Shown: positions 17,116-62,474 of the stretch, piece after piece
Layout of the letters: each line of letters begins with the position of its first letter
Numbering within the stretch: the first letter of the stretch is position 1
Virus record (IMG/VR): IMGVR_UViG_3300028833_000071
Origin: a virus
Taxonomy: Duplodnaviria > Caudoviricetes
DNA length: 64,000 bases
Strand: one strand, 5' to 3'
Made by a program: the position numbers and the translations under genes
The notes under the pieces: generated by a model
Seen by the model: only the letters and a program-made list of their open reading frames with translations
Told to the model about the DNA's origin: nothing
Databases searched by the model: none

Positions 17116-17550
17116 ATGGATAAAACAAAAAACATAATGAAGTACGACGAATACATGGACAAAGAGTGCATTCCGATTTGCGATGCATTGAACGAGTTGC
17201 CTGGTGTGACCACATTCGAATCATGTTGTGGTCATCTTCAAAGACGATATGTTGTGTATCTTTATACCGACAACCCATATTCGATGGCTGTAATCGCAAG
17301 AGCATTGGACAGAAGATACCTTCCCGCAAAATCTACATGGAAAGTGACAATCGAAACAATTGATGTTGAAAGGATTCCACAGTTCTGCATCGGTATATAT
17401 TCTGAAGAACCATTCAAAGATTATGATACAATGATGCATGATGTAAACGAGGTTGTTGAATCAATAAATTATTGGAGACAACCTGAATTTTATGACTATT
17501 TCAAGTTCACTAAATACAATAAAGATGTAAGTGAATCTTTGTGCCAATAA
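17116..17550 (+). CDS. Hypothetical protein, near-identical paralog of 54066..54473
   Basis: Shared TFESCCGH..VVYLYTDNPYSMAVIARALDRRYLP. Confidence 0.75.
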   Translation: MDKTKNIMKYDEYMDKECIPICDALNELPGVTTFESCCGHLQRRYVVYLYTDNPYSMAVIARALDRRYLPAKSTWKVTIETIDVERIPQFCIGIYSEEPFKDYDTMMHDVNEVVESINYWRQPEFYDYFKFTKYNKDVSESLCQ

Positions 17551-17563
17551 GTATATAATTACC
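17540..17563 (-). mobile_element. Solo transposon terminal inverted repeat
   Basis: Reverse complement GGTAATTATATACTTATTGGCACA, followed by A8; matches TIRs at 36227 and 37489. Confidence 0.75.
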
Positions 17564-17571
17564 AAAAAAAA

Positions 17572-23062: not shown

Positions 23063-23091
23063 GGGGCAATTATTAAAATTGTCCCTTTTTT
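23063..23091 (+). terminator. Intrinsic terminator
   Basis: GGGGCAATT..AATTGTCCC + T6. Confidence 0.75.
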
Positions 23092-23135
23092 GTTTTTAAA
23101 AAATAATTTTGTATATTTGTAATAAAAAACAGAAC

Positions 23136-23630
23136 ATGGAACCAAACATTAGTGAAGACATGATAAACGAGTTGCATCAGTTGACTGGCGCAGGCATGAT
23201 GCGGTGCAAGGAGTCACTATCTGCACTTGTAGAAGCGTTAAAGGCAAACATAAATAGACCGAGAAAAACGGACGTAGGATATAAAATTAAAATTGATTTT
23301 GAAGAATATCCTTTAAGGAAACCGCCAATAACACAGGCAGCGCCCAGCTTTATTAGATTTATTGGGGTGTGTGGTGATGAATTGCAACCATCATGCAAAC
23401 GAGAATGCACTTATTTTTCGTGCGATTACGAGTTTGGAGAACTTCCAGAGACTCTTAATAAAGTATATAATGCGTATCAAAAAGAAAATTTTAAGACATT
23501 TTCTGAACGAAATGATGATGTACTTACAGAATTAACAAGACAAATGTTTAAAGAGTTTGATGATTTCCTTAAGAAAGAATTTGGCAAAAAATTCGTTCAT
23601 ACGGAATATTTTACGACAACTTTTTCATAA
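23136..23630 (+). CDS. Protein with EF-Ts N-terminal (UBA-like) domain
   Basis: ISEDMINELHQLTGAGMMRCKESL resembles EF-Ts VKELRERTGAGMMDCKKAL. Confidence 0.65.
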   Translation: MEPNISEDMINELHQLTGAGMMRCKESLSALVEALKANINRPRKTDVGYKIKIDFEEYPLRKPPITQAAPSFIRFIGVCGDELQPSCKRECTYFSCDYEFGELPETLNKVYNAYQKENFKTFSERNDDVLTELTRQMFKEFDDFLKKEFGKKFVHTEYFTTTFS

Positions 23631-23640
23631 AAAAGTAAAG

Positions 23641-23661
23641 TTTGGCACAGTTTTTGTATAA
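23641..23661 (+). promoter_or_regulatory. sigma54-like promoter interrupted by IS insertion; also the TnpB guide-encoding flank
   Basis: TTTGGCACAGTTTTTGTATAA abuts IS right end. Confidence 0.7.
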
Positions 23662-25067
23662 CTGACATACTCCCACGATTGAAATCGTGGGGTTCTTAAT
23701 TTCTTAAGAACCTGTATTTATCAACAAGTTATTCTTGTTGACCACGCTTGACACATCAAGTGGCGCTGTCAGCAGCGCAAGGTGATTTTGTTCATATCGC
23801 TTCAATATGTTAATCGCAGCGTTTAAATCACGGTCTATTACTATGGAATCGGAAATCTGTACCGTCCTGTCGGACAGTCCAACCCTTTCCTCAAACAATT
23901 TGCCGGTCAGACAGTTTTGTTGTGTTGTCCATTTCTCGTTAATGGAAATAAGTTCAGTATTGCTGTTCTGACATTTGTATGACAAATATTCCATAAATGT
24001 GGCTATTGATGATTCACTGAAGTTGCGAGAATTCTTCGTTAACTTGTTGCTTCTCTTCTCCATCAGTGTCTTCACACTCAAGTCACCAACTACAATTGTC
24101 TTGTAGTTCATATTCACCAATTTCTTGCTCTGAATATGCAGAGTCTGTTTTATCTGTGCATTTTTCCTTTTATACAGTTTGTTCTTCACCTTCTTTAACT
24201 TGCAGTGACGGCTGCTGCCCTTTGTGCATTTATCCATTTTGGACTGAACTGACGATATCTGCTTGCGGAAATACTTGTTTATCCTTCTTGCTTTGTTCGG
24301 TATCGTGACAACATTGCCCAAATTATCGACACAGTTGCACAGGTTTTTAATGCCAAGGTCAATCGCAAGTACCTTGTTTTCAGTTGTCAACACCTCTTCT
24401 TCGTCAACATGGTTTGCTACACCTAAGTCAAGCAGATATTTTCCGTTGACCATCTTCAGTTTGACTTCCTTGACAGTTAAAGACTTGTAGTCAATATTCG
24501 GGATACCTTTATAAGTTACGGCAATACCATTTACTTTCAATGTGGTGTTATTTATGAATTTCCATCCCGATTGGTTGTACACAACAGTGTGAAATTTGTC
24601 AACATCGTTGATTTTATGGGGCGGTTTCGCTGTATGGTCTTTTTTAACCAAAGTGAAAAAAGACTTGTATGAGGAATAGATTTCCTTGGCAACCCTTTGG
24701 CTTGCCTTGGAGTTAAGGCAAGTTAAAAAGGGATTTTCTTTTCTGAGGAAGGTTATATCTCTGTCAAGGTCAAATTCGGTTTTTATCTTTCCTGTTGTTT
24801 CATAGGTTTGGTTTTCGATGTCGATAAGCAGGTTATACAAAAGGTTCCTTGCAAGGGACAGGTTTTTCAGTTCCTGCTCCTGCTGACCATTCGGGAAAAG
24901 TCTTAATGTATATGTCCTGTACTGTATCATCACTTATAAATAGTATAATTATTAAAAAAAGTCAAGAAATTAATAAAAAATTTTATTTATTTAATAAAAA
25001 AATTGTATATTTAGGATAGAGCAATTCATCCCACGACTAAAGTGGTGGGCTTTCTTGCTCGTTTATC
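23662..25067 (-). mobile_element. IS200/IS605-family element, tnpB only (IS1341-like)
   Basis: IS608-like ends on minus strand. LE: TTAC|14 nt-AAAG-hairpin. RE: GAAC-hairpin-AGTATGTCAG. Confidence 0.88.
23704..24933 (-). CDS. tnpB: TnpB RNA-guided endonuclease
   Basis: YTLRLFPN..Q N-terminus, LAIDLG, IVVGDL, INEKWTTQ, DRDLNAAINIL. Confidence 0.93.
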   Translation of the reverse strand: MMIQYRTYTLRLFPNGQQEQELKNLSLARNLLYNLLIDIENQTYETTGKIKTEFDLDRDITFLRKENPFLTCLNSKASQRVAKEIYSSYKSFFTLVKKDHTAKPPHKINDVDKFHTVVYNQSGWKFINNTTLKVNGIAVTYKGIPNIDYKSLTVKEVKLKMVNGKYLLDLGVANHVDEEEVLTTENKVLAIDLGIKNLCNCVDNLGNVVTIPNKARRINKYFRKQISSVQSKMDKCTKGSSRHCKLKKVKNKLYKRKNAQIKQTLHIQSKKLVNMNYKTIVVGDLSVKTLMEKRSNKLTKNSRNFSESSIATFMEYLSYKCQNSNTELISINEKWTTQQNCLTGKLFEERVGLSDRTVQISDSIVIDRDLNAAINILKRYEQNHLALLTAPLDVSSVVNKNNLLINTGS

Positions 25068-36212: not shown

Positions 36213-36293
36213 TAAATAAAAAAAAAGGGAACTATATACTTGATGGCACAGGATTTTGAACAATAGGAAAATATTTGTGGTATAACTATTTAT

Positions 36294-36587
36294 GATTCGG
36301 CTGCGGGAAAACCCACTTCTTTAGATGTGGGATGAAAGCAGCCTTAACAAAATATTTTGTTTTTTCAAATATTTTTAGTATATTTGTACAGAAGTTCCGA
36401 GTTAGGGATAGTACTAACTACCACCAAGGGGTTTGCCTTGCAGAGATGGAAATGCATCTCAAAAAAATGGGGACAGAGAAGGACTATCTCTGTGTGGAGT
36501 TAAAGTAAGTGGTTGCACTATGCTTCCCCAAGCACTTCGGTGCTATGCTCCCAAGAACCCCACTATTTCAATAGTGGGAGTAGTCAG
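36294..36587 (+). mobile_element. Non-autonomous IS605-type element encoding only an omegaRNA-like RNA
   Basis: TTAT|14 nt-AAAA-hairpin LE; GAAC-hairpin-AGTAGTCAG RE; removal restores ACTATTTAT-AAGG. Confidence 0.8.
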
Positions 36588-39230: not shown

Positions 39231-39247
39231 TTTGGCACGGTTTTTGT
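39231..39247 (+). promoter_or_regulatory. sigma54-like motif
   Basis: TTTGGCACG-GTTT-TTGT. Confidence 0.7.
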
Positions 39248-39262
39248 AATAACCATTTTGAA

Positions 39263-39312
39263 GTGAACTACCCCTCCCTAAAGTGAGGGGCTTCTTGCTT
39301 GATTAATTAAAA
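39263..39312 (-). mobile_element. Single-hairpin IS605-end mini-element
   Basis: GTGAACTACCCC hairpin GGGG + CTTCTTGCTTGATTAATTAAAA (tail identical to 17619-17640). Confidence 0.7.
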
Positions 39313-50907: not shown

Positions 50908-50967
50908 CTGACATACTCCCACGATTGAAATCGTGGGGTTCTTAACTTTTTTAAGAACTTGTATTTG
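50908..50967 (-). mobile_element. Solo right end of the tnpB element
   Basis: CTGACATACTCCCACGATTGAAATCGTGGGGTTCTTAA identical to 23662-23699, similarity continues about 20 nt. Confidence 0.85.
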
Positions 50968-51045
50968 TAAAAAATGGTTTGAGATACTTGAATAGTTTGG
51001 CACGGTTTTTGATAGGCTAAAAGTAGAATATTAAAAATTAAAATT

Positions 51046-53277: not shown

Positions 53278-54006
53278 ATGAAACCATTTGATTTACAAGA
53301 ATACCTTGAGAATAAGGAACATAAGATTGCCACTAGAGACGGAAGACCTGTAAGAATTATATGTACCGATAGCCCCATACCTGATTATCCAATTGTTGGT
53401 TTTATTGGTGAAGAGTTATGTATATGGACACTTTATGGCCATTATTTTTGTAATACATTAAATAGTGAAAGCGATAAAGACCTTTTCTTTGTTGAAGATG
53501 AATATAAACTTTTACCTGAATGGACTCTTGAGGCTATAAGAGTTGCAATCAATAACCCTAATATACCATATGAGAGTAGAAAGATTTACTCCGAAAAAGT
53601 TCTTCCATTTGTGGAGTCTTTGTTATCTAATTCAACTGATAGTAAATCTGAAAATATTACAAAAATTGATGATGAATTGAAATTAATGATAGCAGACATC
53701 AAAAATGGTGATTTTGTTAAAGATGATTTTGAATTTTGGTATGCAAGACTTTTAGAATGTGCTAATAAAGACGAATGGGAGAATGGCCATGATGTTGGTT
53801 TTGAGGAAGGTAAAAATACAATTTTAAAGAATATACCAGAATGGAAATACAACAAAAACGGTGCTTTTGGCGTTGGTGGGTCAGTGCAGGACCTTTATTT
53901 AATCAGAACAAGTCCTGGATATTATTACTTATCATCCTGTGTAGGCCCTGATACAACTTACATTGAACTCGAAGAAATTGAAAAACTATTAAATAGAAAT
54001 AAATAA
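53278..54006 (+). CDS. Mosaic hypothetical protein
   Basis: MKPFDL..TRDGRPVRIICTD module. Confidence 0.7.
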   Translation: MKPFDLQEYLENKEHKIATRDGRPVRIICTDSPIPDYPIVGFIGEELCIWTLYGHYFCNTLNSESDKDLFFVEDEYKLLPEWTLEAIRVAINNPNIPYESRKIYSEKVLPFVESLLSNSTDSKSENITKIDDELKLMIADIKNGDFVKDDFEFWYARLLECANKDEWENGHDVGFEEGKNTILKNIPEWKYNKNGAFGVGGSVQDLYLIRTSPGYYYLSSCVGPDTTYIELEEIEKLLNRNK

Positions 54007-54065
54007 AACAAATTAGTGTGTAATTATAAAATTCAAAAATAAATGAAAAATTTAACAATTTGTGA

Positions 54066-61439: not shown

Positions 61440-61841
61440 ATGGAAAAAATATATATTTTAGAAGAAGAAAATTTACAAGAAAATTCTTGTTCAAATGTGG
61501 GTGATAAAATGAATTTTGTTAATCAATACATACATATACAAGAACTGAATGCACAAAAACGATTGATTGATAGTATTCTTGAAGATTATAAAAAGGAAGT
61601 TGTACGAATAATGACAAGTGAAGATTCTATGACAACTGAAGATTATCATTATCTTTTTACACTTAAGGAAGTTAAAAATTATCTATTAAGAGAGCGGCTT
61701 TCGATAAACAACTCTCTTTCGGAATGGAATACATTTGATAAATGTACATTAAACCAAATCATTGATTATATTAACTCATTCAAAAACGATTCTATAATTC
61801 AATGCGAAGAGAAAAGTCTCAAACCACAATTAAACCTTTAA
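61440..61841 (+). CDS. Hypothetical protein
   Basis: ORF. Confidence 0.55.
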   Translation: MEKIYILEEENLQENSCSNVGDKMNFVNQYIHIQELNAQKRLIDSILEDYKKEVVRIMTSEDSMTTEDYHYLFTLKEVKNYLLRERLSINNSLSEWNTFDKCTLNQIIDYINSFKNDSIIQCEEKSLKPQLNL

Positions 61842-62082
61842 CAAAATATTTTGTTTTTGGGGAATATTTTTGTATATTAATGGTAGAAAATCAAAGTTCC
61901 GGGTTGGGGACAGTACCAACTGCCAAGGTGGGGCTTGCCACCATTGGGACAGGGGTGGACTACTCCTGTGTGGAGTTAAAGTAAACGAATGGGCTATGCT
62001 TCCCAAAAGCACAATGTGCTTGCTCCCAAGGACCCCACGATTTTAACTGTGGGAGTAGTCAGGGCCAATATCTTGACCCACA
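61838..62082 (+). ncRNA. Second stand-alone omegaRNA-like locus (promoter, scaffold, RE, guide), no left end
   Basis: TTAACAAAATATTTTGTTTTT + TTGTATATT, scaffold homologous to 36392-36587, ends GGGAGTAGTCAG at 62062. Confidence 0.7.
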
Positions 62083-62157
62083 AATAGAACTATGAATATG
62101 TTTAGAATGCCTTTCAAGACAAAACAAATTAGTGTGTAATTATAAAATTCAAAAATA

Positions 62158-62391
62158 ATGACAAGAGAAGAATTGATTTATTTAGGGGCAGTACAAATAT
62201 ATGCCGCATTTGAATCCAATCCGCCAAAAGTAGGCGGAGAACCTTTACCAACAAGAGGATTAGTAGAGGAAGAAGCACTTGAAATTGCTGCTGATATGTA
62301 TGGAAGACTTCCGAAATATGTAAAGTATGCAAAGAAACAATACAAAAAAGAGAAAGAATATCATCAAATAACTGATGAAGAAATAGCATAA
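62158..62391 (+). CDS. Hypothetical protein
   Basis: ORF. Confidence 0.6.
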   Translation: MTREELIYLGAVQIYAAFESNPPKVGGEPLPTRGLVEEEALEIAADMYGRLPKYVKYAKKQYKKEKEYHQITDEEIA

Positions 62392-62436
62392 GCGTTATCT
62401 TTAATTGAACGAATAGAGAACTTATAATAAGTTGTT

Positions 62437-62460
62437 TGTGTCAACAAGTATATAATTACC
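62437..62460 (-). mobile_element. Solo TIR
   Basis: Reverse complement GGTAATTATATACTTGTTGACACA followed by A7. Confidence 0.75.
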
Positions 62461-62474
62461 AAAAAAATTAATTT

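Follow-up and report, generated by a model that had tools for sequence, protein, structure and literature searches.

The window, i.e. the whole stretch of 64,000 nucleotides (64 kb) that was analysed, is part of a large AT-rich phage encoding an RNA ligase, a CCA/poly(A) polymerase-type enzyme and an AAA ATPase, and it harbors one tnpB gene and zero tRNA genes. It carries two copies of a non-coding unit derived from an insertion sequence, referred to here as copy A and copy B, of which the second is the subject of this analysis. The features on which the argument is built are the following:

61440-61841 (+): upstream gene, encoding a protein of 133 aa of no family; its stop codon overlaps the very start of the RNA unit and marks the left junction of copy B
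61838-61895 (+): predicted promoter block of copy B, from an IS605 left-end-proximal promoter, aligning with 36344-36391 of copy A
61896-61945 (+): 5' domain of the RNA, of the short type common to copy A and loci L006 and L210
61946-62062 (+): omegaRNA core, 117 nt, scoring 131.6 bits with covariance model R1
62063-62082 (+): presumed guide, the 16-20 nt that follow the right end; homology among copies stops at 62062
36294-36587 (+): copy A, a complete protein-less mini-element with left-end hairpin, promoter, short 5' domain, core and right end
23662-25067 (-): local tnpB-only IS605-type element, with tnpB at 23704-24933 (Pfam OrfB_IS605, TNB and HTH)
50908-50972 (-): solo right end of the local-tnpB type, a covariance model match of 24.4 bits

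Copy B spans 61838-62062 and its homologue is the stretch 36344-36587 of copy A, a relationship first noticed in the initial annotation and confirmed here by an alignment with 78% identity overall and about 90% across the last 117 nt, which compose the core. The similarity stops exactly after ...GTAGTCAG, at 36587 in copy A and 62062 in copy B, the final base of an IS200/IS605 right end, and every copy compared loses homology just past ...AGTAGTCAG (62062 in copy B). Copy A sits directly after TTAT (36290-36293), which is the end of a ACTATTTAT motif (36285-36293); its left-end hairpin starts at 36294 and is followed by the promoter, the RNA, whose short 5' domain carries one additional hairpin, and the right end. 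No protein-coding gene lies within the RNA of copy B, which is crossed by a 60-aa frame alone and whose tnpB-homologous part is broken by stops. Rfam, used with gathering and with permissive thresholds, yielded nothing relevant for this RNA, and blastn against the INPHARED phages gave no match.

The covariance model R1 was built from five copies of the core, and public collections were scanned for the terminal hairpin together with the right end. This right-end motif was found at 17 viral loci and at more than 120 genome loci, in Lachnospiraceae, Catenibacterium, Lysinibacillus, Bacteroidales and archaea. R1 matches 14 of the loci with the motif at 64-97 bits, and in 7 loci (64-90 bits) the match overlaps the last codons of an ORF of 375-397 aa carrying CxxC pairs and an NRDLNAA motif, which Pfam assigns to TnpB (OrfB_IS605, TNB and HTH domains). 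In one of the elements, L025, a gene for an IS200-type Y1 transposase (TnpA, by Pfam) lies immediately upstream of tnpB, and the element starts with TTAT, a left-end hairpin resembling that of copy A and the same promoter. The scaffold is likewise present at the 3' end of a 384-aa tnpB in complete IS605 elements (Y1 tnpA plus tnpB) of other rumen phage contigs and of Bacteroidales genomes. The left end of copy A and that of the tnpB element in L068 share 87% identity, and 9 further mini-elements from rumen metagenomes show the copy A layout with TTAT 5' of the left end. Since the scaffold overlaps tnpB 3' ends, and the parent elements share left-end hairpin, promoter and TTAT, the RNA can be considered a real TnpB omegaRNA, and the comparison with L025 indicates that copies A and B derive from a tnpA-tnpB IS605 element whose omegaRNA is the core. 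The earlier assignment as a TnpB omegaRNA is thus borne out by homologous scaffolds at the 3' ends of intact tnpB genes. Judged by homology and predicted structure, the core of copy B is a well preserved omegaRNA of this IS605 lineage, whose TAM appears to be TTAT.

The lack of an Rfam family and the position of the unit between two co-oriented genes would also suit some other structured RNA, for example a cis-regulatory leader or a phage small RNA, merely resembling an omegaRNA. However, the homology to tnpB 3' ends covers the whole length of the core, the right end is the one common to the more than 120 genome loci, and copy A has the matching left end and TAM, all of which make this explanation highly improbable.

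Concerning the region 5' of the RNA, the block of copy B displays a -33 TTTG (61850-61853), a 19-nt spacer and a -7 box TATATTAA (61873-61880), and we take it to be a promoter by the Bacteroidota consensus, its promoter function being predicted. It matches at 80% (E 4e-7) the promoter upstream of tnpB in L018, an element of a 392-kb phage, and the same promoter occurs in the complete IS605 of L025. A scan for sigma-70 promoters and terminators found no terminator after the guide of copy B and is uninformative for a Bacteroidota-type promoter such as the one predicted here. Promoter block (as predicted) and core both align with copy A, in support of the earlier description of a stand-alone unit that keeps promoter and scaffold. 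The left-end hairpin, also in agreement with that description, is missing: the 60 nt preceding the promoter block match the left end of copy A no more closely than shuffled sequences do, and no CCCAC..GTGGG hairpin is present within 1.5 kb upstream. A degenerate left end in 61778-61837 was considered and rejected, as its alignment is at the level of shuffles and the stretch is conserved C-terminal coding sequence of the upstream gene.

Homologues of this upstream gene, at 61-74% identity and in one case, a copy belonging to the same phage lineage, at 99%, terminate in ...KPRLK*; the gene in the window ends in ...KPQLNL*, with its stop codon within the promoter block. In two relatives (L220 and L221) other genes come immediately after this gene and no RNA unit is present, and the downstream DNA is not alignable. 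The simplest history compatible with these gene ends would be that a full mini-element inserted downstream of the gene at 61440-61841, and that a deletion then took the left end and the last codon or codons of the gene. Having its left end deleted, copy B would no longer be movable by a TnpA transposase. As a separate observation, positions 23089-23119 (+), upstream of the gene at 23109-23630, show the layout TTTG / 19 nt / TATATTTG found in the mini-element promoter, suggesting that this promoter type is also used by the phage itself.

The short 5' domain folds into two hairpins, P1 (61902-61907 with 61916-61921) and P2 (61927-61931 with 61938-61942), and both helices show compensatory changes among copies A and B, L006 and L210. 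The core is composed of the pseudoknot-loop hairpin (61949-61969), a three-way region (in copy B with the additional hairpin that only stand-alone copies have), the right-end hairpin (62033-62053) and the terminal AGTAGTCAG (62054-62062). The four helix pairs that had been read from the two copies are present and complementary in both A and B, with compensatory differences between them. The apical loop GGACTA(C/T) is in both copies complementary to the terminal TAGTC beside the guide, as had been proposed for a loop GACTA(T/C).

To these two copies, a structure alignment adds further members of the family up to a total of 25, with 13 stand-alone and 12 tnpB-type rows; 7 of the latter overlap a long tnpB ORF and in the other 5 tnpB is broken or absent. 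Standard pairs fill 97.5% of the pair cells and 17 of the 41 pairs show both-sided changes, in an alignment that was fitted to the model, which favours structure; a MAFFT alignment gives the same compensations. This level of covariation was reached in none of 500 shuffles, and slid controls were 35-52% paired. The pseudoknot (5 bp) is 96% paired across the family, with wobble-compatible changes only and zero double-sided changes, and on these alignments is best described as conserved rather than proven by covariation. The extra hairpin is found in all 13 stand-alone copies and in no tnpB-linked copy, and it covaries, hence the RNA seems to have been under selection after the loss of tnpB. The 5' domains of stand-alone copies fall into one short type (A, B, L006 and L210) and two long types, and none of the types shows significant similarity to tnpB coding sequence, for which reason a derivation from that sequence was rejected. 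Such RNA-only features of the stand-alone copies suggest that the tnpB-less lineage has evolved as RNA for some time.

A side observation concerns the long-type 5' domain (L009:1330-1360, L007 and L002), which opens with about 25-33 nt that are the reverse complement of part of the omegaRNA core; compared with the core of L025, the reverse complement is 91% identical over 33 nt (E 2e-7). The stretch could pair with the scaffold and so mask it, or it could be the relic of an inverted duplication.

As to the protein partner, no cognate 384-aa TnpB is encoded in the 64-kb window, in line with the unseen effector of the initial annotation. The single tnpB of the window lies 37 kb from copy B and its product shares no more than 24% identity with the cognate 384-aa family, i.e. 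it belongs to a different TnpB family. The scaffold had been described as unlike the 3' region of this local gene, which holds for most of the element, unrelated to A and B, and fails for its last ~36 nt (minus strand, 23662-23697; right-end hairpin and terminal bases), which are near-identical to those of both copies; this shared part is the hairpin that a TnpA would recognise. The neighbours of copy B (61440-61841 and 62158-62391) match no Pfam or PHROG family, and neither a TnpB nor a TldR gene is adjacent. A 392-kb phage (G408) encodes a cognate TnpB, as do smaller viral contigs and Bacteroidales MAGs. The phage contigs G001, G003 and G409 carry stand-alone copies and lack the cognate TnpB; G003 and G409 are complete according to CheckV.

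Two observations on TnpB diversity are added here. The 392-kb phage (IMGVR_UViG_3300038345_000251; 48990-51521, 318538-319638 and 385807-386880) encodes four TnpB paralogues, two of them adjacent, and one of its TnpBs is 88% identical to the cognate family and has the same left-end promoter as A and B. In the local TnpB (23704-24933, minus strand), the last 60 residues contain DRDLNAA and no cysteine pairs, the cognate 384-aa family having CxxC...CxxC.

The reading that we prefer, and consider probable, is that copy B is an immobilised, probably still foldable, selfish guide that depends on a nuclease in trans; it ranks as the most likely of the readings, an inert relic being second and domestication by the phage third. 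Its ancestor would have been an IS605 mini-element devoid of tnpA and tnpB, like copy A, consisting of a left end, its own left-end promoter, a non-coding 5' domain, an omegaRNA core and a right end, and the later deletion would have removed the left-end hairpin together with the end of the upstream gene. Copy B would probably still be transcribed, either from the retained promoter or by read-through, and fold. To act, it would have to be loaded into a cognate TnpB of the 384-aa type supplied in trans, from elsewhere in the phage genome, from a co-infecting phage or from the Bacteroidales host, and the resulting complex would cut DNA that carries the TAM, TTAT, followed by the 16-20 nt now located to the right of 62062. 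Such a target is the allele without the insertion, so repair by recombination would transfer a copy of the unit to rival genomes, and copy B would behave as a selfish homing guide, not as a tool evolved for the phage.

The guide function of 62063-62082 is presumed from the known TnpB mechanism, and the guides of A and B differ, as had been pointed out before. Targets were sought as exact or near-exact matches only. The first 18 nt of guide B have 4 exact matches in IMG/VR, approximately the number expected by chance, in GC-rich unrelated contexts and none with TTAT; TTAT plus the first 12 nt gives 4 matches in 401 Bacteroidales genomes versus 2 for the reversed control, none of which extends beyond 12 nt; and in the window the guide has no second site besides itself. 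The search for TAM-flanked targets suggested in the initial annotation has thus returned, for IMG/VR, the 401 genomes and the window, no TTAT-flanked target beyond chance. An empty allele with TTAT plus guide B was not found in the collections searched: the close relatives L209 and L222 carry the unit, and the IMG/VR relatives of the flanking 510-aa gene, with at most 51% identity, are too distant for an orthologous empty site. For copy A, the predicted empty site (TTTAT plus guide) has 8 chance matches in IMG/VR, with no flanking homology.

The missing target, as well as the absence of a cognate TnpB from the window, would fit with copy B being an inert relic, i.e. a young pseudo-element that lost its function after the left-end deletion and has not yet decayed. 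Copy B has mismatches in 3 of its 41 pairs, the family maximum among the 25 sequences (tied with L020), whereas copy A has 0, and the -7 box of copy B differs from the one in copies with a left end. Moreover, other copies form a graded series of left truncations, in which L006 lacks the promoter, L008 lacks half of the 5' domain and L010 has 40 nt remaining, and the solo right end at 50908-50972 indicates that this phage has truncated IS605 remnants at other sites as well. Nevertheless, the three mismatches are located at hairpin tips, leaving the main helices, the pseudoknot and the terminal bases intact; the same lineage is represented in two further metagenome assemblies (L209 and L222), which have kept the unit with two SNPs, both outside helices; and sensitive covariance model searches of four phage records revealed more intact than decayed stand-alone copies. 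We regard the relic as unlikely on balance, yet as the second most likely reading, and with its mismatches and altered -7 box copy B may already be inert.

Domestication was the interpretation of the initial annotation, which saw in copy B a domesticated guide and in the dispersed copies a distributed guide array; in its present form, a dispersed set of left-end-less omegaRNAs would program the phage's own, or a borrowed, TnpB against rival phages or the host. At least 4 different phage contigs do carry left-end-less copies whose scaffold is intact, in two cases in tRNA arrays, and structure is maintained over 9-15% core divergence. In the core tree, four left-end-less copies from four phage contigs cluster with weak support (58/77), a grouping that is not predicted by a purely accidental origin; clustering of the left-end-less label as low as that observed was reached in 2 of 500 shuffles, in a test inflated by near-copies among the left-end-bearing rows. 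Against this, the guides of the left-end-less copies have nothing in common, guide B has neither a TTAT-flanked match in IMG/VR nor matches above control level in the Bacteroidales genomes, and no nuclease or nuclease-dead TnpB lies beside copy B. The left breakpoints differ between the left-end-less copies which, together with the solo right end, is the pattern expected from independent deletions, and the pattern searches favoured intact cores. With copy A being a protein-less IS605 mini-element, and copy B a left-end-deleted version of it whose helices are the most eroded of the family, the proposal of a domesticated guide or guide array finds no support here and is, in our judgment, improbable.

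A related and equally speculative scenario, to which we give slightly less credence still, is that large phages retain left-end-less omegaRNAs (copy B and the relatives that weakly cluster with it, from three more rumen phage contigs and in two cases within tRNA arrays) as guides with no effector of their own, which capture the TnpB of the Bacteroidales host or of a co-infecting phage and cut rival genomes without the insert. If true, it would amount to RNA-guided marker exclusion by a guide-only hyperparasite of TnpB.

Concerning known systems, Altae-Tran and coworkers are said to have noted stand-alone omegaRNAs for OMEGA systems in 2021, and these are among the closest known counterparts of copies A and B. 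The preferred reading of copy B as a selfish trans-acting guide has a precedent in the PATE elements, which often encode omegaRNAs needing TnpB in trans (Meers et al., 10.1101/2023.03.14.532601). Like A and B, these protein-less IS200/IS605 elements of Geobacillus stearothermophilus have no protein gene, an IS605 right end, an omegaRNA scaffold and a guide derived from the flank, and they need TnpB in trans; the likeness is greatest for copy A, which would also need TnpA and has a matching left end and TAM. Gene-less guide RNAs are thus already described, and copy B is an ordinary derivative of the described class. It differs from PATEs in having a right end only, and so in not being transposable, and the A/B lineage as a whole differs in carrying the left-end promoter of its parent, in a 5' domain unlike tnpB coding sequence, in the extra hairpin absent from tnpB-linked scaffolds, and in residing in large rumen phages, several of which lack the cognate TnpB on the same contig.

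The ISDra2-type omegaRNA (reRNA) of IS605/IS1341-type elements (Karvelis et al. 2021, PMC8612924; cryo-EM, PMC10097598) shares with copy B a scaffold that stops at the right end and is directly followed by the guide, a pseudoknot between an upstream loop and guide-adjacent bases, and homologous copies that overlap the 3' end of tnpB. In contrast, no tnpB overlaps or adjoins copy B, whose scaffold has a non-coding, lineage-specific 5' half, and the TAM of its lineage appears to be TTAT instead of TTGAT. Guide RNAs of TldRs, the nuclease-dead TnpB-derived transcription factors (Wiegand et al., 10.1101/2023.11.30.569447), resemble copy B as TnpB-type guide RNAs that have lost transposon ends and for which a fixed target is possible. 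Yet copy B has no TldR or TnpB adjacent, no promoter-proximal target was identified for it, and it has lost one end only, through what looks like a deletion that damaged the neighbouring gene.

The locus shows which parts of an RNA-guided transposon can persist in a phage: nuclease, transposase and left end are gone, the predicted promoter and a well-folded scaffold remain, and the retained guide-RNA scaffold has gained RNA-only features. If active with a nuclease in trans, units of this kind would be the smallest known selfish genetic drive as well as a route of phage competition. Natural omegaRNA scaffolds freed from coding constraint are also useful for guide-RNA engineering.

A few further observations were made on the surroundings of related elements. 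In the jumbo-phage contigs G001 (L001:5385-5502) and G002 (L002/L007), a tRNA array has a left-end-less omegaRNA within it or at its head, beside tRNA-like fragments that include T-arm sequences; G002 additionally has half a tRNA abutted by a decayed tnpB right end of the type local to our window. These tRNA-array neighbours (L001/L002) had suggested a tmRNA, a tRNA or an intron as candidates for the RNA, which were set aside because ARAGORN makes no prediction at the RNA, whose identity became clear from its link to tnpB.

Within the window, the bases just beyond the right end (23662) of the local tnpB element, i.e. its guide, are a copy of a motif with the minus-strand consensus CAAAAACYGTGCCAAA (TTTGGCAC-type on the plus strand). 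Copies of this motif are found on the minus strand at 23642-23661, 39231-39246 and 50995-51012, and it recurs beside the solo right end at 50908-50972 and beside a left-end-like hairpin at 39271-39300, which places IS605 remnants next to several copies of one promoter-like motif. Finally, a 38-nt exact repeat (62121-62158 and 54005-54042) is found directly upstream of two small genes, and a 33-nt repeat of 94% identity (62435-62467 and 17538-17570) contains GTATATAATTACC; both are probably recurring phage promoters.
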